Shown piece by piece: positions 8,147-39,616 of a stretch of 64,000 bases of DNA (its first letter is position 1; each line of letters opens with the position of its first letter). The stretch lies in NCBI GenBank assembly GCA_013151775.1, contig JAADHO010000298.1, forward strand, positions 2,853-66,852, written 5' to 3'. A program made the translations under genes and the position numbers. The notes under the pieces were generated by a model that had not been told where the DNA came from, ran no database searches, and worked only from the letters and a program-made list of their open reading frames with translations. The stretch comes from Deltaproteobacteria bacterium (GTDB lineage: Bacteria; Myxococcota_A; Polyangia; Polyangiales; Houyiibacteriaceae).

Positions 8147-10228
8147 TCAGCCCAGAGTGCCGCAGCGGTTGCTGACGCAGGCGGCCGCCGCGTCGCAGCA
8201 GTCGCTGTCCGCTCGGCAGGCTTCGCCTTCTTCGGAGCAGCTCACGCGATCGGGCGGCACGCAGACCGGGCCCGCGCCCTCGTCACGGCAGAAGCCGCTG
8301 CAGCACTCGCCGCTGGTCGCGCATCCACGCGCGTCGGCGCGGCATGGTGCTTCCGTCCACTGGGCCGCCATGTTGTCCGTCGTGCGGTCTTGCTGAGGCA
8401 GCCAATAGGGCGCGAAGCTCGGGTCCGAGCCGGCGGTCGGCGAGTCGCTCACGGCCGCGACCCAGAGCTGCCGGCGACCCGAGCCGGCGGTGCCCGCGCG
8501 GGAGTTGCCGTAGTCGCGCGTGCTGAAGAAGGCGAGCCAGAAGTAGCCACCCTCGTCGAAGGGCGAGAAGGTCGGGTAGTAGCTCTGGGTGGCGCCCGCG
8601 TTGAGGCGCTCGAGCAGGTAGGTGGTGCTGCCATCGCGGCTGACCATCTTCAGGGTGGCGTCCCGGGCGATGGTGCGAGGCGTCGCGCCGGGGCCGCGGT
8701 CTTCACGCGCGCGGCTGTGTTCGCCGTGCTGGAACGCCAGGAAGGCCGAGTCTGGGGACCAGCTCGGGTGGGCCACGGCCAGGCCCGCGCCGGGGAAGAT
8801 CATGCTCGAGGGTCCGAAGGCGTCGGGGCCCGAGACGGGGATCAGGGAGAGGTCTGCCCGGGTGAAGTCCACGGCCCAGCTGCCGTTGGTGCCCGAGGCG
8901 TAGGCGACGGAGCTTCCGTCCGGAGACCAGGTGGGATGGGCCGCACCCGCCGTGGGCAGGCCCGCGCCTCCCGCCGACATGCGCGCGCCCGTGTCGCCGT
9001 CCATCAAGAAGAGCTCGTTGCCATAGCTCGCGACCAGCCGGGTCGTGTCTGGGCTGAAGGTCGCGCCCAGAAACTTCTGCACGCTCGGCGGCACCAAGGT
9101 GGGCGCCGGGTCCACGCTGAGGTCCGCCGTCAGGTCGAAGATCGCGCCATAGTCGCCTCCGTCCCACAGCTCCGCGGCCATCTTGCGCCCGTCGCGGCTG
9201 ATGGTGTGGCAGGCGACGCAGCGTCGTCCGTCGCTCGGTCGCGCAGGCGGCGTGGGCATGAAGTCTTCGCGACCGGTTCCATCGCCTCGGATGCGCTGGA
9301 TGCGGCCCTCGGAGAGATCCCAATAGTAGATGGCGCCGCGGATGGTGGCGTCGGCGAAGCGGAAGCTGCGCGGCGAGCCGGCGATCACCTCACCGCTGCT
9401 GGCCTCGAAGCGATCGACCGTGAGCGTGATGCTCGTCTCGGGTGCGGACTCGGCCAGGGCGCGCCAGGCGCTGGCCGGCACGGCGTAGTGGTCGTCGCCA
9501 TCCCAGGCGAGGTAGGCCGTGATGCGCACCGCGGGTAACACCATGCGCAGGCGGTAGAGATCGCCGCTGGCGCCTCCGTCCCACTGAATGTCGGCCGCCG
9601 CCACGTTGCCCGGAAAGACCGTGCCTTCGAGGGGATAGAGCAGGTCCACGCGTCGGCTGGCGTCGATCACGGGCGCTGGGCTGAAACGGTCTGCCGCGTC
9701 TGCGGGCGCGCCCGGCGCCAGGATGACCGCTTCGATCTCCACGTGCACGGTGGTCGTCGCGGTCATGCCCAGAGCCTCCACCGTGACCTCGACGTCGCCC
9801 GCCACGCTGCCCGCCGCCGTGAACACGCCGCTGGTGCTGTCGACGTCGCCCACCACGCTCGCCGGTGCGGACCAAAACCCCGTCGGGATGTTCTCGGTGC
9901 TGCCGTCGTCGAAGCTGGCCTCGATGTCGAGGTCGACGCTCGCGCTGGCGCCGTCCCGCGCCACCAGGCTGGGCGCGTCGGGCGTGATGGCGATGGAGAC
10001 GAGCGTGCGCCGACCGCCGTCTGGCAATGTGGCGTCGAAGCCGCCGCCGCTGTCGACTCCGGAGTCGCCTGGTGGTCGCGCCACGCAGGCGCCGTCGACG
10101 CAGGTCTCGGAGAGCGCACAGTCCGAGGGGATGCTGCAAGGTCTCGTAGGCGCCGGGTTGCTCGCAGAGCAGGCCCCGAGCAGTAAGGCGGCGAAGACCA
10201 TGGTAGAGTGAATAGACGTGCGCATCAT
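8147..10228 (-). CDS. lipoprotein with Ig-like (Big_2-like) region, TolB/PD40-type beta-propeller repeats, one CxxCH motif and a Cys-rich C-terminal module
   Basis: The start is taken at MMRTSIHSTMVFAALLLGAC (lipobox LLGAC; ATG at 10228). PD40-like repeats include HPTWSPDGSSVAYAS and HPSWSPDSAFLAFQ. A single heme-type motif is present (RRCVACHTISRDG). The C-terminus is knottin-like (CATSGECCSGFCRDEGAGPVCVPP, CRADSDCCDAAAACVSNRC). Confidence 0.7.
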   Translation of the reverse strand: MMRTSIHSTMVFAALLLGACSASNPAPTRPCSIPSDCALSETCVDGACVARPPGDSGVDSGGGFDATLPDGGRRTLVSIAITPDAPSLVARDGASASVDLDIEASFDDGSTENIPTGFWSAPASVVGDVDSTSGVFTAAGSVAGDVEVTVEALGMTATTTVHVEIEAVILAPGAPADAADRFSPAPVIDASRRVDLLYPLEGTVFPGNVAAADIQWDGGASGDLYRLRMVLPAVRITAYLAWDGDDHYAVPASAWRALAESAPETSITLTVDRFEASSGEVIAGSPRSFRFADATIRGAIYYWDLSEGRIQRIRGDGTGREDFMPTPPARPSDGRRCVACHTISRDGRKMAAELWDGGDYGAIFDLTADLSVDPAPTLVPPSVQKFLGATFSPDTTRLVASYGNELFLMDGDTGARMSAGGAGLPTAGAAHPTWSPDGSSVAYASGTNGSWAVDFTRADLSLIPVSGPDAFGPSSMIFPGAGLAVAHPSWSPDSAFLAFQHGEHSRAREDRGPGATPRTIARDATLKMVSRDGSTTYLLERLNAGATQSYYPTFSPFDEGGYFWLAFFSTRDYGNSRAGTAGSGRRQLWVAAVSDSPTAGSDPSFAPYWLPQQDRTTDNMAAQWTEAPCRADARGCATSGECCSGFCRDEGAGPVCVPPDRVSCSEEGEACRADSDCCDAAAACVSNRCGTLG

Positions 10229-10338
10229 CGCAGCAAGGTAGCAGCGTCTGCCGGCAATCCCCAGGTGCATCCGCGCCCCGGCCAGGCTTGCGCGCACGAG
10301 GTCGTGCACATGGCTCCGGTCGAACTCGGCGGGTCTGG

Positions 10339-11019
10339 TTAGAGGTAGGTGACGAATCCCAGGAAGGGAGTGAAGTACACCGACAGGCTGCTGAGATTCC
10401 TCACCAGGACCTCACCCCGGCCGCCGAGGTCCAAGGAGAATTGGGGAGTGATGTCAATCTCGAGACCAAGTGCGAAGTCGCCGCCAGCCAGGGCTCGGAA
10501 GCGAGTCCGGTCGCCCGTCGTCTCGCTGGGCAAGTTCAGCGAAATGCCGATTTCTCCGAACGGATGGAAGCGATTCTTCGGCAGCGCAGACACGCGGAAA
10601 ACGGCAGCCACAGACAGACCAAGGTAGCTGTAGTGGTCTGCCGTGAGCCAGCGCGCGCCCACCGATACACCGACGCCAACGCCCATGGAGTTCTCGTAGC
10701 CGAGCATCGCGCTGAGCGTGGTTCCGAGCGCTAGCGGGTCGGTGCCGAGGCTCGGACCGCCGCGGCCTCGCAAGAAAAACCAATCTTGGTCGGCCGTGTC
10801 TGCGACTGCGGTGTCGCCTTGTGTTGTCTGCGCCACGATCATCGCGTCCTGCACTGCTGGCTCGGGCGCGAGGGGCGAGACATTGGGTTGTGCCCCATCC
10901 GACACCACGCCCTGCCCTCCGACGGCCGGGCTGTAGGCGCGGGCTGTAGGCACGGCCCCAAGAACGATACACGCCGCAGCGGCGAAGGCCACGACTCCAA
11001 CACTAGTACGTTCTCTCAT
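10339..11019 (-). CDS. small outer-membrane beta-barrel family protein (OmpA-barrel/porin-like)
   Basis: ATG at 11019 is preceded by CCCAGGAGTGTTGT (AGGAG Shine-Dalgarno). The signal peptide is MRERTSVGVVAFAAAACIVLGAVPTARA. Alternating strands are present (GVGVGVSVGARWL, YLGLSVAAVFRV, FALGLEIDITPQFSLDLGG). The aromatic-rich C-terminus is FLGFVTYL. Confidence 0.6.
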   Translation of the reverse strand: MRERTSVGVVAFAAAACIVLGAVPTARAYSPAVGGQGVVSDGAQPNVSPLAPEPAVQDAMIVAQTTQGDTAVADTADQDWFFLRGRGGPSLGTDPLALGTTLSAMLGYENSMGVGVGVSVGARWLTADHYSYLGLSVAAVFRVSALPKNRFHPFGEIGISLNLPSETTGDRTRFRALAGGDFALGLEIDITPQFSLDLGGRGEVLVRNLSSLSVYFTPFLGFVTYL

Positions 11020-11385
11020 CACAACACTCCTGGGATTCAACTTCTTTTCGCAGTTGTTCGGCCGCACGTACACATTCAACGGCAGCATGGCGTGATCGGG
11101 GCGCACCGCGATGAAGGCGCGCGCCGCAGACAAGGGCTTCAGCTTCCCCTAGCTGGTCGACGCTACGCAAGAGATCCCGCGGGCCTATGACGCGGCCTGC
11201 GCAGCCGACATCTTCCTCTTGGATGCGGCTCGCCGGCTGGTCTACAACGGACGCTGGGCAGCACGCGCCACGATCTACGCCGCGCCATCGACGCGACCTT
11301 GTCCGGCGCCGAACTCGACTTCGACGTCGTGCCTTCCATGGGCTCTCCATGACGCTGGCGTTGGGAGCTGATACATAGCGGCGCG

Positions 11386-15346: not shown

Positions 15347-16602
15347 GGCTCTCTCTCTTCGTGGCGTGTGCGCCTGGGCTCGAGGGTTTGCTCCAGGGTG
15401 AGGTGCGGCGCGTGCTCGGCCCGAGGAAGAAGTGCGAGGTGGTCGCCGGTGGGGTGGAGCTCACGGGAGACGTCGCGGCAGTGATGCGCCTGAACCTCGA
15501 GCTGGCCCTCGCCTCGAGCGTGCGGGTGCGCATCGGCGAGGTGAAGGCCAAGCGCTTCGACGCCTTCGCGCGCAAGACGTCGCGTCTGCCCTTCGAGCGC
15601 TTCATCGATCCCGAGCGCGAGTACGAAGTGCGCGCCACCACCCGCCACTCTCGCCTGTACCACACGGGCGCCATCGCCGAGCGCGTGGCCTGGGCCGTCG
15701 CCACCCGGCTCGGTCGTCAGGCGCCGCCCGCGAACCCGGAGGCTGGCGCCGAGCAGGCCTCGCCCAGCGTGCTGCACGCCCGCTTCGTGGACGACGTCTG
15801 CACCCTCAGCGTCGACACCTCGGGCGCTCCCCTGCATCGCCGGGGCTATCGACTCGAGAGCGCGCGGGCGCCACTGCGTGAGGATCTAGCGCGCGCCCTG
15901 GTCGAGGTGAGCGGGTGGTCGCCCGGGGCCGCGCTGGTGGATCCACTATGTGGCGCCGGCACCCTGGTGATCGAGGCCGCTCTGCTGGCCCGCCGCCTGG
16001 CGCCGGGGCGTTCGCGCCGCTTCGCCTTCATGGACTCGCCGCTCTTTGATCCGGCGCTCTTCGCCGAGATCCAGGCCAAGCTCGCGGCTCGGGCGTCGCC
16101 CTGCCTGCCGGTCCGCCTCGTGGGCACGGATCGCGATCCCGGCGCCATCGAGGCGGCGCGGGCCAATGCCGAGCGGGCGGGGGTGGCGGACGACGTCTGC
16201 TTCGCCGAGGCGAGCCTCTCGGACGCCCCATCACACTGGCCGGCGCTGACACGGGAGTCGGCGCTGGTGGCGAACATGCCCTTCGGTCAGCGCGTGTCAC
16301 GCGGGCAGCCGCTCGGCGCCCTGCATCAGCGCCTCGGGGCCTTGGTGGCGGCGCTCCCCGAGCGTCCACGGGTCGCCCTGCTCGTGGCGGATCGCAAGCT
16401 CGCCTACCTCACGGGGCTGGACCTCCACCCGGCGTTTCACACCAAGCACGGAGGGCTCTCCGTACACGCCATGGTTGGCCACCAAACTAAAGCTCGAGCG
16501 CCGAGCGTCCGAGGGCAGGACGATGGCCCCTCGAGCGAGGCAGCGGAAGCGGGCGCGGCGCGCGCCGAAGGCCAAGGCGCGTCCGGCGGCGGCGGGCCCT
16601 GA
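15343..16602 (+). CDS. THUMP-domain class I SAM-dependent RNA (N6-adenine/guanine-type) methyltransferase
   Basis: ATG at 15343 sits in an ATGA overlap with the prsW-like stop. The THUMP-like N-terminus is MRLSLFVACAPGLEGLL..VRVRIGE. The SAM motif is DPLCGAGTLVIEAA and the catalytic motif is NMPFG (NPPY-type). The Gly/Ala-rich tail may be a run-on caused by stop-codon scarcity. Confidence 0.75.
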   Translation: MRLSLFVACAPGLEGLLQGEVRRVLGPRKKCEVVAGGVELTGDVAAVMRLNLELALASSVRVRIGEVKAKRFDAFARKTSRLPFERFIDPEREYEVRATTRHSRLYHTGAIAERVAWAVATRLGRQAPPANPEAGAEQASPSVLHARFVDDVCTLSVDTSGAPLHRRGYRLESARAPLREDLARALVEVSGWSPGAALVDPLCGAGTLVIEAALLARRLAPGRSRRFAFMDSPLFDPALFAEIQAKLAARASPCLPVRLVGTDRDPGAIEAARANAERAGVADDVCFAEASLSDAPSHWPALTRESALVANMPFGQRVSRGQPLGALHQRLGALVAALPERPRVALLVADRKLAYLTGLDLHPAFHTKHGGLSVHAMVGHQTKARAPSVRGQDDGPSSEAAEAGAARAEGQGASGGGGP

Positions 16603-18046
16603 GGTCGAGGTCCGTGCGCTGATGCGCAGGGCCGACCGCGATCTCGAGGCGGGAGACGCCAAGGCCGCCGCGCAGCGACTCACGCGCGCCATGACTCTCG
16701 ACCCCACGAACGCCGACGCGGCCCTCGCCCTGGCGCTGCTCTATCACCGTCGGGGCAACCACGACGCCGCTCTGAAGCCTCTGAACGAGGCTCTGCGCCG
16801 CGCGCCGGGCCGGCAGGATCTGAAGATCCAGCTCGCTCAGGTGTTGCTCGACGGAGGCCACCTGCCTCAAGCGGACAAGGCCTTCGAGTTGGTGCTCCGC
16901 GAGTCGCCCCATGAGCCCTTCAGCCGCTCCGGTCGCGCCACCATCGCCATGCGTCGCGGCCAGCCCGAGTGCGCCATGGAGCTGTTGCAAGACCTGGTCG
17001 AGGAGCGCCGCCCCCACGTGAACGCGGCCTCTACCTGGGGTCGCGCCGCGCTCTTGGTCGGGCGCGTGGATGAGGCGAGGGACGTGGTCGAGCGGGCGTT
17101 GGTGGGCGCGTCTGATCCCGCCGTGGCGATCCTGGGCCACCTCCTCGGTGATATCCTGGCGAGCCTCCGAGAGCATGCGGGGGCCTTTCGCGCTCACGCT
17201 CGGGCGAACGCGGCGACCCGCGTCGAGTACGACCCCAAGGCGCACACACGCGAGGTGGAGCAGCGGCTCGAGCTCGCGCGCTCGGGGGCCTGCGCCTCCC
17301 TGGCGCGGGCGAAGGTCGACGGCTCACGGGCGCTCTTGATCGTGGGGATGCCGCGCTCGGGGACCAGCCTCACGGAGCAGATCCTAGCTCGCCACAGCGC
17401 GGTCCACGCGGCCGGGGAGCGTGAGGACTTGCGGCTGTTGGAGAAGGCGCTGCGGGCTCAGCACCCCGGCACCCACATGCAGGCGATGACCGAGATGGAC
17501 GAGGCCTTCGCCACGCGCATGGGCCGCCACTATCTAGAGCGCGTGGGCCACGAGGCGCCCGCCGGCAGCGTGCTGGTCGACAAGATGCCGCAGAACTACC
17601 TGCAGCTGGCTCTCGCGGCCTGCGTCCTGCCCGGGGTCCGTGTCGTGCATTGCGTCCGTGACGCCCGCGAGACAGCGCTCTCGTGCTTCTTCCAATCCTT
17701 CGGCTCGCAGCAAGCCTTCAGCACGCGCCTCGACTGGCTCGGCCAGCGCATCGTAGAGCAGCGGCGGCTGATGGCGGAGCTGCCCGAGGCGCTGGAGTTG
17801 CCGCTGATGACCCTGCACTACGAGCGGCTGGTGCAGGCGCCGGAGCGGACGATCCGTGAGCTGCTCGAGTTCGCGCAGCTGCCCTTCGAGCAGGCCTGTC
17901 TCAGCCCGCACGAGAGCGAGCGCCTGGTCAACACAGCCTCCTGGGCACAGGTGAAGAAGCCGATTCACGCGGGCTCCCTGGGCCGCACGGCGCACTACAG
18001 CGAGCCGCTCGGACCCCTCGACGCCGTCCTCGGCGACGTGCGCTAG
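16523..18046 (+). CDS. TPR-repeat sulfotransferase family protein
   Basis: TPR-like N-terminal half (AAAQRLTRAMTLDPTNADAALALALLYHRRGNHDAALKPL). The PAPS 5'-PSB motif is LLIVGMPRSGTSLTEQIL. The start is ambiguous: ATG 16523 overlaps the upstream gene, and ATG 16622 is the alternative. Confidence 0.7.
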   Translation: MAPRARQRKRARRAPKAKARPAAAGPEVEVRALMRRADRDLEAGDAKAAAQRLTRAMTLDPTNADAALALALLYHRRGNHDAALKPLNEALRRAPGRQDLKIQLAQVLLDGGHLPQADKAFELVLRESPHEPFSRSGRATIAMRRGQPECAMELLQDLVEERRPHVNAASTWGRAALLVGRVDEARDVVERALVGASDPAVAILGHLLGDILASLREHAGAFRAHARANAATRVEYDPKAHTREVEQRLELARSGACASLARAKVDGSRALLIVGMPRSGTSLTEQILARHSAVHAAGEREDLRLLEKALRAQHPGTHMQAMTEMDEAFATRMGRHYLERVGHEAPAGSVLVDKMPQNYLQLALAACVLPGVRVVHCVRDARETALSCFFQSFGSQQAFSTRLDWLGQRIVEQRRLMAELPEALELPLMTLHYERLVQAPERTIRELLEFAQLPFEQACLSPHESERLVNTASWAQVKKPIHAGSLGRTAHYSEPLGPLDAVLGDVR

Positions 18047-18618
18047 CTGCAGGCGTCGAGCAGGCGCTCGGCGAGCTCGTACTCGGGGATGGCGCCGCGG
18101 CTCAGGGTGGTGGAGCCGACCCGCACGCAGGGCACCGACGTGACGCCTAGCGCCGGGCACTGATCCGCGCGCAGGATGTCGACGTCGAGCGCGGGTGATC
18201 CGCAGGCCATGCGCAGCGCCGCCGCGGAGACGCCGGGGCAGAAGGGACAGCTCGGGCCCACGAACACCTGTAGCGCGAGGCGCTCGGGCAGGCGCGCCAA
18301 GAGCGCGGGCGTCGCGGGCGTGTCCCAGGCGATCTCGCCGGTGGCCAAGCTGCGCAGGGTCTCCGCCAAGCTCTCCAAGAGGCGACCTTCGAGCTCTCCG
18401 AGGAAGCGGATGGAGCCATGGGCGTGGGAGCCCCGTAGCTCGAGCTGGGCGTGTGCGCTGGGAGCCTCGTCCCACTCGAGCTGCAGCCACGCCGCCGCCT
18501 CGGCGAAGTCCCTCAGCACGCTCTCTGCCGATCGCCCTCGGACGCTCAGACGCACAGGCGCGCCCGGGACACCGAGGTAGGCTCGGAGCCGGGTCAGCGC
18601 CTGCGGTCGCGAGCTCAC
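18043..18618 (-). CDS. thioredoxin-fold (glutaredoxin-like) protein with CPFC redox motif
   Basis: Only the 3' 576 nt of the 611-aa track ORF look coding. GTG at 18618 forms a GTGA overlap with the stop of the upstream gltS-like gene. The motif VFVGPSCPFCP is followed by a VTSVPCV cis-Pro-like region. Confidence 0.6.
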   Translation of the reverse strand: MSSRPQALTRLRAYLGVPGAPVRLSVRGRSAESVLRDFAEAAAWLQLEWDEAPSAHAQLELRGSHAHGSIRFLGELEGRLLESLAETLRSLATGEIAWDTPATPALLARLPERLALQVFVGPSCPFCPGVSAAALRMACGSPALDVDILRADQCPALGVTSVPCVRVGSTTLSRGAIPEYELAERLLDACS

Positions 18619-20240
18619 GTGTCGAGCTGCACGTAGGACGCGCGCTGTCTGCTGTCGAGCACCTCGAAGGAGTCGGGGCGTGCGGCGTGCCAGGCACGGG
18701 CGTAGGCCTCGGGGATGTCCGCTCCGAGCAGCGAGCCGGGCTCGATGTACTGGTAGATCTGATCGTAGTGGCGCACGTCCGTGGACGAGACGCGGCGCTG
18801 GATATGCCACGGCCTCAGGTCTCCCGGGCCGTCGAGGCCCGCCGCCGCGACCAGCTCGTTGAGGGCGCGAAGGGTGGCGTCGTGGTACTGCCGCACGCGC
18901 TCGGCCTTGTCGGGGATCACCAGGCCACTCACCAAGGAGGGCAGCTGCGTGGCGATGCCCACGGGGCAGTGGTTGGTGTTGCAGCGTCGGGCTTGGATGC
19001 AGCCGAGGGCGAACATCATGGAGCGCGCCGCCATGGTCGCGTCCGCGCCCACGGCGAGCTTGTGCGCGATGTCGAAGCCGCTCGCGACCTTCCCGCTCGC
19101 GAGCACGCGGATCTCCTCGCGCAGGCCCGCGCCCGTGAGCGCGTTGTGGACGAAGACCAGGCCCTCTACCAAGGGCGTGCCCACCACGTTGGAGAACTCG
19201 AGGGGCGCCGCGCCCGTGCCTCCCTCGCCACCGTCCACCGTGATGAAATCGGGGCGCACGCCGGTCTCGAGCATGGCCTTGACGATGGCGAAGAACTCTC
19301 GATGCTTGCCGATGCAGAGCTTGAAGCCGACCGGTTTCCCGCCCGATAGATCCCGAAGCGTAGTGATGAACTTCATCATCTCGAGCGGCGTCCCAAAGGA
19401 CGAGTGCGTGGGCGGTGAGAGCACGTCTTTTCCCAGCGGGACGTGACGAATCTTGGCGATCTCTGGCGTGACCTTGGCCGCCGGAAGGATGCCTCCGTGG
19501 CCCGGCTTGGCGCCTTGACTGACCTTGATCTCCACCATCTTGACGGCGTCTGTGGTCGCCTTCTGGGCGAAGCGCTCTTCGGAGAATCCGCCCTCGTCGT
19601 TGCGCGCGCCGAAGTAGCCCGTGCCGATCTGCCAGATCAGGTCTCCCCCCTGCTCGTGGTGCGGGCTGAGCCCGCCTTCGCCCGTATTGTGCGCGAAGTG
19701 GCCCTGCTTGGCGGCGCGGTTCAGGGCGATGATGGCGTGCCGGCTCAGGGAGCCGAAGCTCATGGCGGAGACGTTCAAGAGCGAGAGGTCGTAGGGCTGC
19801 TTGCAGTCCTTTCCGCCGACCATGATGCGAGGGAGCTCCTCCGGGTGCTCCTTGGCCGCGATGGAGTGGTTGATCCACTCGTATCCGACGTCGTAGACAT
19901 TGCGCTGCGTGCCGAAGGGCACGGTGTCGCGCACGCCCTTGGCACGCTGATAGATGAGTGAGCGTTTCTCGCGATTGAATGGCGTGCCGGATACGTCAGA
20001 CTCGACGAAATACTGGTTGATCTCTGGTCGAATCGACTCGAGGAGATAGCGCCCATGTCCCACGAGCGGGTAGTTGCGCCTCAGGGCGTGGCGGGTCTGG
20101 AGCATGTCGTAGAGGCCGAGCAGAATGGGCGGCCCGACGAGGACGAAGGCCCAGGCGGCGGGAGGCCAGACATAGGCCGCCGCGGAGATGCCCGCGATGA
20201 CGACGCCGGCGCCCAGCACGAAGATGTTTCTCGGTGTCAT
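18615..20240 (-). CDS. membrane-anchored FMN-binding glutamate synthase family protein (GltB central-domain-like)
   Basis: ATG at 20240. N-terminal TM helices are IFVLGAGVVIAGISAAAYVWPPAAWAFVLVGPPILLGL. Conserved GltS-domain blocks are present: NVSAMSFGSLS, VEIKVSQGAKPGHGGILP, ITVDGGEGGTGAAP and CNTNHCPVGIATQ. Confidence 0.85.
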   Translation of the reverse strand: MTPRNIFVLGAGVVIAGISAAAYVWPPAAWAFVLVGPPILLGLYDMLQTRHALRRNYPLVGHGRYLLESIRPEINQYFVESDVSGTPFNREKRSLIYQRAKGVRDTVPFGTQRNVYDVGYEWINHSIAAKEHPEELPRIMVGGKDCKQPYDLSLLNVSAMSFGSLSRHAIIALNRAAKQGHFAHNTGEGGLSPHHEQGGDLIWQIGTGYFGARNDEGGFSEERFAQKATTDAVKMVEIKVSQGAKPGHGGILPAAKVTPEIAKIRHVPLGKDVLSPPTHSSFGTPLEMMKFITTLRDLSGGKPVGFKLCIGKHREFFAIVKAMLETGVRPDFITVDGGEGGTGAAPLEFSNVVGTPLVEGLVFVHNALTGAGLREEIRVLASGKVASGFDIAHKLAVGADATMAARSMMFALGCIQARRCNTNHCPVGIATQLPSLVSGLVIPDKAERVRQYHDATLRALNELVAAAGLDGPGDLRPWHIQRRVSSTDVRHYDQIYQYIEPGSLLGADIPEAYARAWHAARPDSFEVLDSRQRASYVQLDT

Positions 20241-20283: not shown

Positions 20284-21489
20284 TCAGTCGTCGCTCCGTG
20301 TGATGGGAGCTTGGCCGGATTTGCGGTCGAGCCGCCGACGCACCCACCAGACGCCGAAGATGGCCACGACCGCGCCCAGGGTGAGCAGCAGACCTCCCAT
20401 CACCGGACGATGGGCGGTCCAGAGTCCACCCACGACCAGCACGCAGAGGGGCGTGGCCAGGGCGAGCGCGGGCACGATGGCGCCCGCTTCGAGCATGCGC
20501 CCGAGGCGCACGAAGCGCTCGCTGCCCATGGCGCGTCGCAGCAGCAGCCACAGCCCGAGCCAGATCAGCAGCCAGCTCAGGGCGCGCAGGGCCCACGTCA
20601 GCGGTGTGTTCACGCGTGTGATGTCGCTCGCGGCGTCGCCCGCCTCTTCGCGACCGAGGCTGAGGTGCGGCGCCAGCTCACGGCCGCTCGGGGCGGTCCA
20701 GGTCGTCAGCTCGCTCCCGCGTTGCGCGCCGACCACGGTGACGGTGGTGAAGGGCGTGCGCTGAAAGCGGACGCGTAGATCGCCCACGCGAGGCTGTGCC
20801 GGATCTTGGCCGACGTAGATCGAGTCGTCCCAGAGCTGTCCGCGCTTGCCCGCGAGCTCCACGGCGTTGGCGGCCGCGGCGTCGGGTGTGAGGCTCTCGA
20901 GGGTCTCGACCTGGGCGAGCAGGGAGGCGGGCACGGCGAAGGCGCCGACCACGGGGCGAGAGGCCTCGAAGGAGTCGTCCTCGGCCGGGAAGTCCGGATT
21001 CTCGTGGCCCTCCTCCTGCTCGAAGTCGCCCGAGTCGATGGGCGTGGCGGACCACACGCCCGAGTAGCGCGGCTCGCTGACGCGCCGCGTGCCGCCGTCC
21101 TCGCGGAGCTCACGCTCCACCCGCTCCTCACGCCATTGGTACATCTCCACGTGACGCAGAAGCCGCAGGGCGCTGACCGAGACCTGGAACACGGGATCGA
21201 CCAAGATCTCGCGCGTGGAGAGCTGCCCCGTGACGTGCACGAGGCGGCCTTCGGCGCTGGGATCGACCTGCTCCGCGGCCACGCTGACCACGGCCCGCCC
21301 GCTCTCGAGGGCGTCGTCGGCGCGGTTCAGGGCGAAGAGCTCGTCGCCCACGAGCAGGGCGAGACCTGCCACGACGAGCGCCACGGCCACGAGCGCCCGC
21401 CGGCTCTTGGGCGCGGCGGGGGAGGTGGCCGGCTTCTCGGAGTCATCCGACGTCGCGGGCTCAGCTTCGGATTCGGTTGTGTTCGTCAC
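20284..21489 (-). CDS. TMEM43 (DUF1625)-family membrane protein
   Basis: GTG at 21489 is the codon immediately after, and in the same frame as, the TAA of the upstream gene. The layout is TM1 (ALVAVALVVAGLALLVG), a large loop containing VEMYQWRE, and a C-terminal cluster of TM helices (WALRALSWLLIWLGLWLLL, IVPALALATPLCVLVVGGLW, GGLLLTLGAVVAIFGVWW). Confidence 0.65.
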   Translation of the reverse strand: MTNTTESEAEPATSDDSEKPATSPAAPKSRRALVAVALVVAGLALLVGDELFALNRADDALESGRAVVSVAAEQVDPSAEGRLVHVTGQLSTREILVDPVFQVSVSALRLLRHVEMYQWREERVERELREDGGTRRVSEPRYSGVWSATPIDSGDFEQEEGHENPDFPAEDDSFEASRPVVGAFAVPASLLAQVETLESLTPDAAAANAVELAGKRGQLWDDSIYVGQDPAQPRVGDLRVRFQRTPFTTVTVVGAQRGSELTTWTAPSGRELAPHLSLGREEAGDAASDITRVNTPLTWALRALSWLLIWLGLWLLLRRAMGSERFVRLGRMLEAGAIVPALALATPLCVLVVGGLWTAHRPVMGGLLLTLGAVVAIFGVWWVRRRLDRKSGQAPITRSDD

Positions 21490-22110
21490 TTAGAGCACTT
21501 CGTCGAGATGGTTGAGAAGTCGGTCGGCGGAAGGTGCCGCCGCGCGCACCTTGTTTGGATCGACGCGCGCGAGCAGCGCGAAGGAGTGCTTGCCTTTGCC
21601 GTAGGGCCCGCCCTGGGTGTTTCGCGTCGCCTGCTTCAACGCGTCGTAGACGCCTTGCTTCTGGACGCTTTCGAGCGAGGTGCCAGGGGGCAGCGCGCTG
21701 CGCTGGAAGCCCTGACCAAAGAACTCCTCGAGCGCGTGTGGATCCGCCAGGAACCAACTCTCCATGCACTCGATCATCAAGTGAAGCTGTTCGTCTGTCG
21801 CATTCCCCGGCTGTTGCCAGCCGTCTCCCTGTCGTTGTGCGACATGCTTCCAACTCGAGGTCTGTGACACCGGCGCCTCCGAGTCCACCAACAGCACGAC
21901 CGAGTCGCAGGGCTGTGCCTCTCTGAATGCGCTGCAGAACCTCTTGTACGCCTGTCCGCGCCCACCACAGGCGACGATACGAGGCATACGGCCCGTGAAA
22001 CTCCCCGTCTTCTCGAGGAACTTGCGGAAGCCTTTGCGGCATGCTGTCGCGAGCGCGTGATTGTTGTCGCCTCCGCCCTCGACGAAGAGCAGTCGCTTCC
22101 TGCTGGTCAC
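21490..22110 (-). CDS. DUF4276-like protein with Toprim-like acidic motifs
   Basis: The preferred start is GTG 22110, which forms a GTGA overlap with the ATPase stop and is preceded by GGGAGGG. The track's GTG 22143 is the alternative. The N-terminal strand is RKRLLFVEGGGDNN, followed by VVLLVDSEAP and ECMESWFLADP. Size is about 205 aa. The family call is from remembered motif pattern, not a search. Confidence 0.55.
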   Translation of the reverse strand: MTSRKRLLFVEGGGDNNHALATACRKGFRKFLEKTGSFTGRMPRIVACGGRGQAYKRFCSAFREAQPCDSVVLLVDSEAPVSQTSSWKHVAQRQGDGWQQPGNATDEQLHLMIECMESWFLADPHALEEFFGQGFQRSALPPGTSLESVQKQGVYDALKQATRNTQGGPYGKGKHSFALLARVDPNKVRAAAPSADRLLNHLDEVL

Positions 22111-23297
22111 CAGCGGGTCCCTCCCAGGCGTCCACTCATCCACAGGCTGCCCAGGCTGCCGTCGCCGCGCCAGCGCTCGACCTCATCCTGAGCGAGCCGA
22201 GTCAGCCGACTTCCTCCTTCGTGCTTCTCGCATACCAACACCGAGTTCGCGTAGTCTGTCATGGCGTCCACGAGCTGCGTCGAGTGCGTCGAGACCACCA
22301 GCTGGCAGCGCCCGCTGGCCTCCAACATGAGATCACGAAGCGCGGGCAGCACGTCGGGGTGCAGGCCGAGTTCAGGCTCCTCGATGGCCACCAAGGGCGG
22401 AGGCTTCGGATCAGTCAGGATCGCCGCCAAGCATAGGAAGCGCAGCGTGCCGTCCGAGAGGCGTCGCGCGGGCAGCATGCGCCCGCTCTCCTGAACGTAG
22501 AGTTGGAGCTGCCCCCCTTCAGGGGTGACTTCGATGTCTTCGAAACCGGCGCAGAAATCACCCATCAGTTCGATCAGGCGCTTCTTGACGGCCGGAGTCT
22601 TCTTGAGCACGGCTAGGCGCGCAGGAAGATTGCTGAAGTCCTCGAGCAGCCTGTCCGTGACCACGTCGGCATGGCAACTGCTGCGCACGGCGGAGCGCGG
22701 ACCGAAGGACCAGCTGCGGTAGATCGCCACTCGCTTCAGCTTGTCAGCCAGCTGCGTCAGCTCCGGGTAGCTGTCTGGATCGCGTCGCTGCGAGAGGATG
22801 GACTGCGTCGGGTCGAGGTCTTCCCGCTCGAGCTGGCGCCCCACCTTCCCATCGGCGACGTTGAGCATGGGGCGGCCCTGCTGATAGCCGAAATAGAAGT
22901 AGGGCTTCGTGTGGCCTTCGTCAGGACATTCGTTTTCGATTCGCTCGTCGAGCACGGTGAACTTATCGCCCTCGGCTCCGAAGGTCAGGCGATAGCGGAC
23001 GGCGGGCGTCGCGATCTGCCCCGCCGCGAAGACGGCCTCCAGGCTTGCTCGGTCCGCAGGTGACGTTCCCTTCCACAGCCAATCCTTGACGCCTCCGCCC
23101 TCGCGAATTGGCAGGGGCAGGTCTCTGGGCGCAGCTCGAAGCACCGAGAGCGCTTCCACGAAATTCGACTTGCCCGAGCCGTTGGGCCCGATCACGAGGT
23201 TGAGCGCGGACAGAACGATTGGGTCGGAGTCGGGCGCGAAGGAGAGAAAACCTCCTAGCGCGATGCTCTTCAGCAGCTTGGCCCCCTGTGCGCTCAT
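22107..23297 (-). CDS. AAA_21/ABC-type (SMC/OLD-like) ATPase
   Basis: ATG at 23297 is preceded by a GAGGAAG Shine-Dalgarno. Walker A is LVIGPNGSGKSNF, the ABC signature-like motif is RLSDGTLRFL, Walker B/D-loop is LVAIEEPELGLHPD, and the His-switch region is VVSTHS. Confidence 0.85.
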   Translation of the reverse strand: MSAQGAKLLKSIALGGFLSFAPDSDPIVLSALNLVIGPNGSGKSNFVEALSVLRAAPRDLPLPIREGGGVKDWLWKGTSPADRASLEAVFAAGQIATPAVRYRLTFGAEGDKFTVLDERIENECPDEGHTKPYFYFGYQQGRPMLNVADGKVGRQLEREDLDPTQSILSQRRDPDSYPELTQLADKLKRVAIYRSWSFGPRSAVRSSCHADVVTDRLLEDFSNLPARLAVLKKTPAVKKRLIELMGDFCAGFEDIEVTPEGGQLQLYVQESGRMLPARRLSDGTLRFLCLAAILTDPKPPPLVAIEEPELGLHPDVLPALRDLMLEASGRCQLVVSTHSTQLVDAMTDYANSVLVCEKHEGGSRLTRLAQDEVERWRGDGSLGSLWMSGRLGGTRW

Positions 23298-23511
23298 GTC
23301 TTCCTCTGCTGAAGTTCCTGCCTATAGCTCTTGTCGCCTGTTTCATCTGGGGCGTCAATCGAAGCGGGCACGTCGGGTACGCTCGAGGGAGGTCGAGCCC
23401 GGCGTTCGCTGCGCTGTCGCGTGTCTGAATCTGGCAGAGCGATCCCCGCTTGCGGCCGCGATCGAATCGAGGCTAGCCTTTTAGGCACCTTCCACACGGA
23501 GCTTCCCACCG

Positions 23512-24267
23512 ATGACTGCTCAGCGTTTCGTTCTCTCCTCCCGCGTCCGGGCCGTGGTCGCGCTCTCGGCGGCTCTCTCCCTCGGCGCCTGCGGTGGCGG
23601 TGGAGGGAGCACCACGGATGGGGGCGGCTCGCGCGACTCGGCCGCACGTCCCCCCGACTCGGGCGGCGGTCGTGACTCGGCGATCTCTCCGGGCGATGGT
23701 GGCGGCCGAGATTCGGCGACCCCGCCGGGAGACTCCGGCGGTGGCTGCGTGCCTACGGTCGAGATCTGCGGCGATCGCATCGATCAGAATTGCGACGGCC
23801 GCGACACGGGCTGCGGTGACGCGGACGGCGATCATTTCGACGCCTGCACGGTGGCCGATCAGATGTCCGGCGATCTCAGCGCCTGCGACTGCGACGACGA
23901 CCACGCTACGGCCTATCCGGGGCATCCCGAGGAGTGCGACGGCATCGACAACGACTGCAACGGACGCATCGACGAGGCCGCGGCCTGCTGCGCGGGCTGC
24001 GCGGGCATGGCCCTGCGCGGAGACATATGCGCCACAGACGGCTCCTGCGCGTGTTCGACCGCACCGGGCATGGGCGTGTGCGCAGTGGGCCAGACGTGTT
24101 GCTCGGGCGGCTGCACGGACATCACCACGGACATCACAAACTGCGGCTACTGCGGCACGGCCTGCACCACGAGCTCTGACACATGCAGCGGTGGCGAGTG
24201 TCGCTGTGGCACGGGCCCTGTGTGCAGCTACACCTACGCGTGCACGGGCGGCAGCTGCGGCACGTGA
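23512..24267 (+). CDS. Cys-rich lipoprotein with MopE-type 'putative metal-binding motif'
   Basis: The signal/lipobox is VVALSAALSLGAC. GGGRDSA-type repeats follow. Motifs are EICGDRIDQNCDGRDTGCGDADGD and EECDGIDNDCNGRIDE, with a Cys-rich tail (CCSGGCTDITTDITNCGYCGTAC). Confidence 0.75.
   Translation: MTAQRFVLSSRVRAVVALSAALSLGACGGGGGSTTDGGGSRDSAARPPDSGGGRDSAISPGDGGGRDSATPPGDSGGGCVPTVEICGDRIDQNCDGRDTGCGDADGDHFDACTVADQMSGDLSACDCDDDHATAYPGHPEECDGIDNDCNGRIDEAAACCAGCAGMALRGDICATDGSCACSTAPGMGVCAVGQTCCSGGCTDITTDITNCGYCGTACTTSSDTCSGGECRCGTGPVCSYTYACTGGSCGT
23617..23745 (+). repeat. about 3.4 tandem copies of a 36-39 nt coding repeat (DGGGSRDSAARPP / DSGGGRDSAISPG / DGGGRDSATPPG / DSGGG)
   Basis: Read directly from the translation and the DNA ('ggcgg..cg.gactcggc' recurs). 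Confidence 0.8.
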
Positions 24268-26999: not shown

Positions 27000-27233
27000 A
27001 TGGCTCCACTCAAGGCGCGCGTCTGTGACGGCAAGCTGGTTTTCGAGGATGCGTCCACGGATCTACCCGAGGGGGCCGTGGTTCGACTGCGCATCGTGGA
27101 AGCTCCAGACGCCATGGGCGACGAGGAGCGTGCGAGGCTTCACGAGGCGCTTCGGCGCAGCCTGGAACAAGCCAAGGCAGGCCAGCTCATCCACGCGGAT
27201 CAGGTGATTTCCCGGCTGCTCGCTAGGGAATGA
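27000..27233 (+). CDS. type II antitoxin (DUF104-like N-terminus plus ParD-like helical C-terminus)
   Basis: ATG at 27000, 77 aa. ARVCDGKLVFEDASTDLPEGAVVRLRIVE resembles the 'GvfkP..dLPEGt.V.v' antitoxin motif. The C-terminus is DEERARLHEALRRSLEQAKAGQLI. The stop overlaps the toxin start (ATGA at 27230). Confidence 0.65.
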   Translation: MAPLKARVCDGKLVFEDASTDLPEGAVVRLRIVEAPDAMGDEERARLHEALRRSLEQAKAGQLIHADQVISRLLARE

Positions 27234-27535
27234 GCGTCCGCTTCACGCCCGAAGCGCGGGACCAGGCCGAGGCGAGTGACATCTGGTGGAGGACTCATCG
27301 GGACGAGGCGCGCGACATGTTCGCGAGAGAGCTTCTCGCCGCCCAGGAACTGGTCGCGAGCACTCCGAGCCTTGGCACCTTCTACACCATGCTCGAAGAG
27401 ACTCCTGTGCGCCGACTCTTGATGCCCAAGACCAGACACCACATCTACTACACACTGCGTCGGGAGGCGGACGAGGACGAGGTCGTCATCCTCGCAGTGT
27501 GGGGGGCACCGAAGGCTGAAGGACCATTCCTCTAG
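27230..27535 (+). CDS. RelE/ParE-superfamily toxin (ParE-like)
   Basis: 101 aa. FTPEARDQAEASDIWW and the C-terminal HHIYYTLRREADEDEVVILAVWG are typical ParE/RelE layout. The gene is translationally coupled to the upstream small ORF. Confidence 0.7.
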   Translation: MSVRFTPEARDQAEASDIWWRTHRDEARDMFARELLAAQELVASTPSLGTFYTMLEETPVRRLLMPKTRHHIYYTLRREADEDEVVILAVWGAPKAEGPFL

Positions 27536-27600
27536 CGCGAACCTGCCAGATTGTCGTCGGGAAGGCCGCAGGGATGCACGGCCGCGGTTCGTGGCGCTGG

Positions 27601-28200
27601 CTACTTCAGCCTTGGCTGATAGGGGTCGAGGACTTCGCCTCGCGTTGGCTCGCGCCCATGTCGCGTCGGTGGGGCTGCCGCCGAGGCGCGCACCACGATC
27701 ACCTCGACCAAGGTGCCGCCATCAAAGCGCAGCGCGAGGGTGTAGGGGCGGGAGTGGGTGAGTCCCGAGAGCACGGCCCGCAGGCAGCGCGACACGGGGG
27801 TGTCGGCGGGCTGGCGTGCCGCTGAGGTCACGCGGTAGACCGGCCCGGAAGGGACCTCGAGAAAGCAGCGTCGAATCTTGCGCGCCTGTTCGCGCGCGGA
27901 GACCGTGAGGCGATGCTCGTCCGGCCGGAAGGCGCGCAGCCTCTCATTGGGATCGTCGTTGCCCCAGGGGTCGAACACCTCCGGCGCGACCCAATGGGGC
28001 ACGCCGTGTCGCAAGGGCACGAGCGCAAGCGCGGGCTCTGCGGCCGCTTGTGGTCGCGTCGTCTGAGAGGCGGGCTCCTCTGCTGGCGACGACTCCGCCC
28101 ACGGATCGAGCCGTTCCGCGCGCTGCGCGTGGGCCGTCGCGGTGACCGAGCACAGCAACAGGCCAAAGGATGTGAGGACGACGGCATACCGAGCGAGCAT
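27601..28200 (-). CDS. hypothetical secreted protein
   Basis: ATG at 28200. The signal peptide is MLARYAVVLTSFGLLLCSVTATAHA. Composition is non-shadow. No motif recognised. Confidence 0.55.
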   Translation of the reverse strand: MLARYAVVLTSFGLLLCSVTATAHAQRAERLDPWAESSPAEEPASQTTRPQAAAEPALALVPLRHGVPHWVAPEVFDPWGNDDPNERLRAFRPDEHRLTVSAREQARKIRRCFLEVPSGPVYRVTSAARQPADTPVSRCLRAVLSGLTHSRPYTLALRFDGGTLVEVIVVRASAAAPPTRHGREPTRGEVLDPYQPRLK

Positions 28201-38531: not shown

Positions 38532-39125
38532 TCAGCCAGAACCGCCCCGCTTGAGCTCGGTCAGCACCAACTTGGCGATGGCCTTCAGCGTATCGAAGAC
38601 CCCGAGCCCCGTGAGCGCGACGGCCTCGAAGTCAGGCACGCCACCCGGATTCAAGAGCTGGCGCAGCTCCTCCACGGGTGCGATGGCGGGCATGTCGCGC
38701 TTGTTGTACTGCACGACGTAGGGGAGCTTATCCAGGCTGTAGCCCTGCTCCGCGAGGTTCGTGCGCAGGTTCTCGATGGACTCGATGTTGGCTTCCGTGC
38801 GGGCGATCTGGGAGTCCGCCACGAAGACCACGCCGTCGACCCCCTTGAGGATCAGCTTGCGGCTGGCGTCGTAGAAGACCTGCCCGGGCACGGTGTAGAG
38901 ATGGAAGCGGGTCTTGAAGCCACGGATCTCACCCAAGGCGAGGGGCAGAAAATCGAAGAAGAGGGTGCGCTCGGTCTCGGTCGCGAGGCTGATCATCTTG
39001 CCCTTCGCGTCCGGGTTCGTCTTGTTGTAGATGAACTGCAGGTTCGTGGTCTTGCCGCAGAGCCCCGGCCCATAGAACACGATCTTGCAGTTGATCTCGC
39101 GCGAGAGATAGTTGATGAACGACAT
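38532..39125 (-). CDS. mglA: gliding-motility Ras-like GTPase MglA
   Basis: [33 protein letters not shown].. carries the P-loop [18 protein letters not shown] and VQYNKRD are present. Near full-length resemblance to M. xanthus MglA. It sits directly downstream of mglB. Confidence 0.95.
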
Positions 39126-39133
39126 CTAGCGGC

Positions 39134-39616
39134 TCAATCGTTGAAGAGGTTGTCGATGTCGTCGTCCGTGATCTCGGCGAAGGGAGCCTCCCGCTCCGGA
39201 TCGTCCACCTTCGCGAGCAGCGCCTCGAAGATGCCGTTGAGCTGCTCGCTCGACTTCTTCACGCGCAACCGCACCAGCCCGAGGCTGGTCTTGTTGTCGA
39301 AGATCACCACGAGGATGACGCGGTTGCCAACCAACTGGATGTGGATGTTGGCTCGCTCACCTTCGTGGAACTGCGTGGTGAACTCATTCTCACGCAGCAA
39401 CTTCGCGATGCCTCCCGTGGCGGCGATGTTCCCGGCAGTCAGGGACGCGAGCGAAGTCGTGTCCACATCTGCGGTATCACCGGCCGACGCGATCAGCTGA
39501 CCATTTTTGTCGATGATGAAAACGACCTCGGCGTTTGCCTCACGAACCAAGCGATCGACGATCGCCTGGATCTGATTGAACTCCGCTTCGTACATCACCA
39601 TCTGCGGGTTCGCCAT
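39134..39616 (-). CDS. mglB: Roadblock/LC7-domain GTPase-activating protein MglB
   Basis: 160 aa. ATG 39616 is preceded by a GGAGGAG Shine-Dalgarno. The Roadblock/LC7 pattern is VVFIIDKNGQLIASAGD..SLASLTAGNIAATGGIAKLL. The tail is acidic. The mglBA gene order is conserved. Confidence 0.9.
   Translation of the reverse strand: MANPQMVMYEAEFNQIQAIVDRLVREANAEVVFIIDKNGQLIASAGDTADVDTTSLASLTAGNIAATGGIAKLLRENEFTTQFHEGERANIHIQLVGNRVILVVIFDNKTSLGLVRLRVKKSSEQLNGIFEALLAKVDDPEREAPFAEITDDDIDNLFND

Follow-up and report, generated by a model that had tools for sequence, protein, structure and literature searches.

An earlier reading of a 64,000-nt stretch of Deltaproteobacteria bacterium DNA (GenBank assembly GCA_013151775.1, contig JAADHO010000298.1; hereafter, the window), made from the sequence alone, described a gap-free three-gene module comprising an ATPase, a small DUF4276 protein and a TMEM43-family membrane protein, and proposed it as a candidate defence system with a membrane component. 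Positions 21490-23447 are very probably an acquired HEC-01 cassette, in which the ATPase and DUF4276 genes are translationally coupled, inserted beside TMEM43; how the cassette might act can be proposed by analogy with related systems. The apparent "three-gene system" is an accident of this insertion, and TMEM43 is a resident passenger. The elements at the site are as follows:

21490..23447, minus strand: whole inserted segment, 1958 nt (leader, HEC-01A and HEC-01B), ending at the DUF4276 stop codon; delimited by blastn against the related contig L115 and by the minimum in guanine-plus-cytosine (GC) content
22107..23297, minus strand: HEC-01A, ABC-type (AAA_21) ATPase, 396 amino acids (aa); PADLOC PDLC04177 and Pfam AAA_21
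21490..22110, minus strand: HEC-01B, DUF4276 protein, predicted Toprim-like nuclease, 206 aa; PADLOC PDLC04201 and Pfam DUF4276
23298..23447, minus strand: leader of the inserted cassette, 150 nt, GC 0.62; not alignable to the intergenic region of relatives
20284..21489, minus strand: native TMEM43-family membrane protein, 401 aa, four hydrophobic segments; flanking resident gene, by Pfam, synteny and GC content at third codon positions (GC3)
23448..23511, no strand: surviving, conserved part of the native divergent intergenic region that separated a MopE-type lipoprotein gene from TMEM43; aligns to the related contigs L112, L113 and L115

The site without the pair is found in three relatives, L115, L112 and L113, in which TMEM43 has no ATPase-DUF4276 pair upstream. 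Protein searches identified the closest TMEM43 proteins as P0122 (80% aa identity), P0124 (73%) and P0123 (70%), all on short contigs. The gene for a GltS-like flavin mononucleotide (FMN) protein lies directly downstream of TMEM43 in L111 (79% aa) and L112 (71% aa), and a divergent gene is located about 65-92 nt upstream of TMEM43 in L112 and L113; in L112, this gene starts MNASLVSPRLLLVLGLPAALSLVACGGGSSTDGG and is homologous to the MopE-type lipoprotein gene of the window. L115, a 16.8-kb contig found via its GltS-like protein (83% aa) and carrying a leucyl-tRNA synthetase (LeuRS) of 90% aa identity, has the order LeuRS, MopE, 92 nt, TMEM43, GltS-like, thioredoxin_3 and, further on, PrsW and PurF. 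This order is collinear with the window, and neither the ATPase nor DUF4276 was found in L115 by tblastn. TMEM43 is thus syntenic in relatives without the pair, a finding that the sequence-only reading had itself named as one that would speak against the TMEM43 component, and its membership in the module fails on synteny. The resident genes that border the site in the window are:

23512-24267, plus strand: MopE-type lipoprotein gene, divergent neighbour of the cassette
18615-20240, minus strand: GltS-like FMN protein gene, 43 nt past TMEM43
about 18046-18618, minus strand: thioredoxin_3 gene, overlapping the end of the GltS-like gene

Alignment to these relatives resolves the breakpoints. By blastn, L115 1-2431 corresponds to window 25881-23448 and L115 2527-3639 to window 21439-20330. 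On the lipoprotein side, the intergenic regions of L112, L113 and L115 align with the window as far as …GGCTCCGTG…AAAGCTAGCC…GCAAGC (about 23448); on the other side, fine alignment resumes at the TMEM43 GTG, which lines up with GTC, the second codon of ATG-GTC-ACG… in the relatives. The insertion took the place of about 33 native nt, among them TMEM43's ATG and the conserved upstream element TTTGGTATG. The comparison shows that window 21490-23447 is a 1958-nt insertion into a divergent intergenic region of roughly 92 nt, with the MopE-type lipoprotein gene on one side and TMEM43 on the other. The zero-spacer TAA-GTG is an insertion scar, at which the cassette ends with its own stop and native sequence resumes at a Val codon usable as a start. 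The junction is therefore gap-free because of the insertion breakpoint rather than because of a designed operon, and the meaning first given to it, a co-translated module, does not survive the alignment.

Composition delimits the same segment. Its GC content of 0.639 is the minimum of all 1957-nt segments in the 64 kb (mean 0.687, sd 0.017), and GC3 is 0.80 in the ATPase gene and 0.77 in the DUF4276 gene, compared with 0.882 in the GltS-like gene and 0.927 in LeuRS. The dip is limited to these two genes and the 150-nt leader, and TMEM43 is host-like (GC 0.716, GC3 0.886); composition thus argues for a two-gene, not a three-gene, insertion. Accordingly, the GC-poor module and the hint of horizontal acquisition that had been noted earlier hold for the two-gene cassette, with its low GC and its empty site in relatives, but not for TMEM43. 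No sigma-70-like promoter site was found in the cassette, leader included, and no terminator was found in the cassette; presumably, the 150-nt leader carries the cassette promoter.

Co-occurrence was assessed in 85 loci of DUF4276 homologues (46-63% identity), collected by a metagenome scan and contig look-ups and including at least 1.2 kb of downstream sequence in 47 and at least 2 kb in 34, and in 25 TMEM43 loci from GTDB genomes with flanks up to 10 kb, the relatives in the GTDB scan being 29-40% identical. The ATPase gene lies immediately upstream of the DUF4276 gene, on the same strand, in 80 of the 80 loci with upstream sequence; in the remaining five, the contig ends within 99 nt. Thus, the two-gene pair is a strictly conserved unit. 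A TMEM43 homologue, by contrast, was present in none of the 85 DUF4276 loci (47 of them with the 1.2 kb or more), and an ATPase or DUF4276 homologue in none of the 25 TMEM43 loci. No third gene recurs beside the pair, the biggest downstream family being found in 6 of 68 loci. Nucleotide homology to other HEC-01 loci is confined to the pair, covering positions 22-1804 of its 1808 nt, and the leader has no match in the 85 other HEC-01 loci. PADLOC gave no match for TMEM43, and neither the TMEM43 of the window nor P0001, the publicly annotated form of the DUF4276 protein, had an exact-sequence match on record. The link to TMEM43 as a third, membrane component is contradicted by these counts and by relatives that keep TMEM43 without the pair.

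The gene arrangement itself is as it had been described. The three minus-strand ORFs occupy 22107-23297, 21490-22110 and 20284-21489 with no spacers between them, and a Pfam scan assigns them to AAA_21 (1.2e-35), DUF4276 (4.2e-24) and TMEM43 (7.2e-47), respectively. Both junctions are exact in the sequence: the ATPase TGA (22107-22109) and the DUF4276 GTG (22108-22110) share a 4-nt GTGA overlap, with GGGAGGG upstream of the DUF4276 start, and the TMEM43 GTG (21487-21489) directly follows the DUF4276 TAA (21490-21492) in frame. Likewise, no other ATG, GTG or TTG occurs between TMEM43 codons 1 and 34, and codon 34 is already inside the first hydrophobic helix (aa 33-51), so that the claimed absence of another canonical start before this helix is borne out. 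What had been overlooked is that the same-strand run extends beyond TMEM43, through a 43-nt gap, to the GltS-like FMN protein gene and then to thioredoxin_3.

The first gene encodes what its sequence indicates is an intact ABC ATPase with a complete set of catalytic motifs. Walker A GPNGSGKS (aa 37-44, 23166-23189), the signature LSDGTLR (aa 280-286, 22440-22460) and Walker B LVAIEEPELGLHP (aa 302-314, 22356-22394) are all present as had been described, and an H-loop STHS is located at 22281-22292. The PADLOC HEC-01A model PDLC04177 matches with E 6.4e-151 and 500.8 bits, aa 7-396 aligning with model positions 3-393 of 393. Other PADLOC matches are far below HEC-01A: AriA, a generic AAA_21-like profile, at 8.5e-34, and, in the C-terminal part, weak matches to the Old and ATPase-Toprim_I-B models at 1.2e-13. 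The protein is also partly similar to MAD3 (NCBIfam 2e-20, 73.4 bits vs a cutoff of 420; PADLOC mad3 6e-22).

The DUF4276 protein matches the PADLOC HEC-01B model PDLC04201 over its full length (E 3.5e-75) and Pfam DUF4276 with 86 bits against a cutoff of 30.2. It contains the motifs VEGGGD (22066-22083, with E11), LLVDSE (21877-21894, with D76 and E78) and CMESWFLAD (21742-21768). In an alignment of 31 DUF4276 homologues (50-63% identity), E11, D76, E117 and D123 show no variation, and E78 is conserved to 90% or more. An AlphaFold2 (AF2) model (pLDDT, the predicted local distance difference test, 94.7; pTM, the predicted template modelling score, 0.90) has the order beta1(6-10)-helix-beta2(44-47)-helix-beta3(70-76)-helix-beta4(109-112), followed by a helical C-terminal half. 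According to the model and the alignment, E11 directly follows beta1, and D76-x-E78 is situated at the end of beta3. The features by which Toprim domains are recognized, i.e., a Glu after beta1, a DxD-type motif after beta3 and a beta-alpha-beta-alpha-beta-alpha-beta core, are all present, the motif here being D-x-E. The fold order and the positions of these residues thus agree with the Toprim definition in PMC12065111, which places DUF4276 in the Toprim superfamily and describes the homologue Mad4 as part of MADS. Moreover, HEC-01B has been reported to have a BpOLD-like metal site (Payne et al., bioRxiv 10.1101/2024.01.29.577857). Direct fold and profile comparisons did not reach significance. 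In a Foldseek search against PDB, the Thermus scotoductus OLD nuclease 6p74 ranked first, weakly, with E 0.15, and the model had no significant structural match in PDB or BFVD. A PDB sequence profile search gave noise-level matches, hhalign against P2 Old gave no match, and a Pfam scan of the 31 homologues at E up to 10 gave none to Toprim, RloB or DUF4435. The fold check that the sequence-only reading had proposed thus agrees with Toprim in motif and topology but yields only this weak hit to OLD. Supported by the two papers, and with conserved acidic residues in Toprim positions, the DUF4276 protein probably belongs to the Toprim nuclease superfamily as a predicted nuclease, as the first reading of the small protein had suggested.

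The public NCBI annotation starts this protein at a CTG six codons downstream (P0001, 200 aa, beginning MLFVEGGGD; 22093-22110), and the ORF listing offers an alternative start at GTG 22143. Judging from homologue N-termini (MVRRxxKLFVEGGGD), the GGGAGGG Shine-Dalgarno sequence and the 4-nt overlap with the ATPase stop, GTG 22110 fits better than the annotated CTG.

By its profile matches, the pair corresponds exactly to PADLOC HEC-01, a split ABC-ATPase plus TOPRIM candidate defence module: HEC-01A and HEC-01B both match, and the two genes are adjacent and co-oriented. The PADLOC run proposed for the locus thus returned both components at full length. HEC-01, or "Hma-embedded candidate 01", was described as an ABC ATPase with a TOPRIM-like protein by Payne et al. 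(bioRxiv 10.1101/2024.01.29.577857), who re-classified the ATPase as ABC-type. PADLOC-DB has included it since 2023, and two papers have tested it. The second (2026 Nature Communications, PMC12881386) reports protection of E. coli B by one HEC-01 representative, effective against at least one of T4, T5 and T7. In addition, according to the Fig. 6 legend of a PARIS study (PMC11464382), ATPases linked to DUF4276 share an AAA15/21 ATPase tree with those of PARIS, and in PMC12065111, DUF4276 homologues are the predicted effectors of two defence systems, Menshen and MADS. The proposal of an OLD/PARIS-like ATPase plus Toprim candidate defence pair therefore finds support in PADLOC and in this literature, and the earlier doubt as to whether such pairs had been described is settled: the ATPase plus DUF4276 pairing is already known, catalogued and tested twice, and what is new here is one more copy.

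Like the described HEC-01 copies, the pair consists of adjacent, same-strand, overlapping genes that match both profile hidden Markov models (HMMs) at full length; unlike them, it is not Hma-embedded but lies between a lipoprotein gene and TMEM43, with no Hma, BREX or other defence locus. PARIS (AriA and AriB) likewise combines a split ABC/AAA_21 ATPase with a separate small Toprim-superfamily protein; however, its partner is AriB (DUF4435 TOPRIM), with Ocr as trigger and tRNA-Lys as target, whereas the partner here is DUF4276. Membership in PARIS was rejected, as the AriB model does not match the small protein, for which PADLOC returns HEC-01B models alone and Pfam DUF4276 alone. OLD and Gabija GajA also combine ABC ATPase and Toprim chemistry, but fused in one polypeptide; as the pair here is two separate ORFs and no GajB/UvrD-like helicase occurs among the neighbours, OLD class 1 and Gabija were rejected as well. 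An AAA_21-type ATPase beside a DUF4276 Toprim effector, as found here, also occurs in MADS (Mad3/Mad4) and in Menshen (NsnB with NsnC, which has a C-terminal DUF4276 domain; PMC12065111). The low MAD3 score and the absence of methyltransferase or other mad genes nearby rejected MADS, and the absence of NsnA/NsnC genes near the pair rejected Menshen.

HEC-01 homologues of about 50-61% identity were also found inside BREX-type loci (L027 3086-10061, L080 3981-7490, L091 and L103). The homologous pair follows BrxC in L027 and precedes PglX in L080, L091 and L103; BrxC/PglY and a Schlafen/AlbA_2 protein flank it in one setting, and PglX comes immediately after it in the other. Other homologous pairs adjoin housekeeping genes such as Lon, PheT and nonribosomal peptide synthetase (NRPS) genes. 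These contexts are consistent with a mobile "embedded" cassette and extend the embedded pattern from Hma to BREX.

The ATPase and DUF4276 genes are thus translationally coupled via the GTGA overlap, and the cassette landed between the MopE-type lipoprotein gene and the resident genes for TMEM43, the GltS-like FMN protein and thioredoxin_3, which form an operon, so that its TAA came to abut the former codon 2 (GTG) of TMEM43. TMEM43 is now probably expressed by read-through and by termination-reinitiation at TAA-GTG, a side effect of the insertion. For the mode of action, the analogy with PARIS, OLD and Gabija suggests that the ATPase may serve as a sensor or scaffold, keeping the Toprim nuclease in an inactive state. 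A cue derived from phage and linked to ATP binding or hydrolysis would then release or activate the nuclease, which might cut nucleic acid (DNA or tRNA) and thereby abort infection.

Several observations weigh against an acquired defence cassette. No tRNA was found in the window, and no integrase, mobility gene or terminal repeat marks the insertion, direct and inverted repeats at the cassette ends being limited to chance-level 10-mers. The pair is not in a defence island; its neighbours are housekeeping genes (PurF, PrsW, TPR-sulfotransferase, GltS-like and LeuRS), and PADLOC has no hits around it in the window. HEC-01 gave no protection against an E. coli phage panel (Payne et al., bioRxiv 10.1101/2024.01.29.577857), and the sensor/effector mechanism is drawn wholly by analogy with PARIS, OLD and Gabija. 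That panel is the largest test so far, and its outcome, the housekeeping surroundings and the Pfam annotation of AAA_21 as 'putative AbiEii toxin, type IV TA' would all fit a selfish or housekeeping ATPase-nuclease module that has no anti-phage role, for example an addiction or toxin-antitoxin (TA)-like element or a factor in DNA repair. This reading is nevertheless unlikely in view of the repeated embedding of homologous pairs in BREX and Hma defence loci, the positive phage assay and the predicted effector function of DUF4276 homologues in Menshen and MADS. It is also conceivable that the pair is ancestral at this site, the window representing the original state, and was deleted in the relatives: the lineages compared are three or four, all on short metagenomic contigs, and the comparison lacks outgroup polarity. 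However, the pair stands out from the 64-kb window as its compositional outlier, homologous pairs elsewhere occur in unrelated contexts, and the intergenic region of the relatives is short, mutually conserved and retains TMEM43's ATG, as in an intact ancestral state. Three independent, precise deletions restoring the start codon would be needed, which makes this history very unlikely.

The acquired two-gene cassette must also be weighed against the model from which the analysis started, a genuine three-gene defence system, with TMEM43 translated together with the ATPase-Toprim pair and acting as a membrane effector or anchor. The genes are indeed physically gap-free, with the GTGA overlap followed by TAA-GTG; TMEM43 has no alternative start; and, having lost its own upstream region, it must depend on the cassette for expression. 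Yet neither set of loci contains the combination, relatives have TMEM43 and the same neighbours without the pair, the composition of TMEM43 is host-like and that of the pair is not, and PADLOC does not recognize TMEM43. These comparative data largely refute the model, for which hardly any probability remains. Equally slight is the chance that TMEM43 has been, or is being, co-opted as a third component in this lineage after its fusion into one translationally coupled operon; if true, this would be a caught-in-the-act case of a defence system recruiting a host membrane protein.

The locus contributes one further HEC-01 pair, from a Myxococcota-like metagenome-assembled genome (MAG), to a family whose detected homologues number more than 1600. 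It provides a base-resolved example of a two-gene defence cassette in a divergent promoter region, the insertion of which deleted the start codon of a resident gene and left TMEM43 dependent on the cassette for expression. It also cautions that gap-free gene junctions can be insertion scars and not evidence of a functional operon. Beyond annotation, the locus matters little, and the mechanism and target of HEC-01 are no more testable here than with other copies.

Further observations concern the flanks of the insertion and the remainder of the window. The native intergenic region (window 23448-23511; L112 129-190; L113 111-175) is conserved across relatives, with …GGCTCCGTGTG…AAAGCTAGCC…GCAAGC, and a palindrome, GCGGCCGC, is located in it at 23447-23464; the region may regulate the MopE-type lipoprotein gene. 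In L015 (10001-11134), a contig of a Desulfobacteraceae MAG, the TMEM43 N-terminal domain is matched by tblastn twice in a row (10001-10576 and 10625-11134), which suggests either tandem TMEM43 genes or a duplication inside the gene.

Another variable spot of the otherwise collinear region lies at window 16475-18046 (plus strand), corresponding to L115 6094-8496: a TPR and sulfotransferase protein is encoded in the window and an 800-aa Ser/Thr protein kinase in L115, and the flanks align on both sides. Directly after LeuRS, a ParE-like toxin gene is located at 27230-27535 (plus strand; Pfam ParE_toxin E 1.8e-4, just under the cutoff). Immediately before it, a small ORF ends near 27233, and GC is lower (0.64-0.66) at 27000-27750, around the ParE-like gene; together, the two ORFs may represent a small inserted toxin-antitoxin unit. 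GC is second lowest in the window (about 0.647) at 37.8-40.7 kb. At 38532-39616 (minus strand), a small Arf/Ras-like GTPase (weak match) is encoded beside a Roadblock/LC7 protein, forming an MglA/MglB-like pair that, with a GC3 of 0.84-0.92, looks native rather than acquired.

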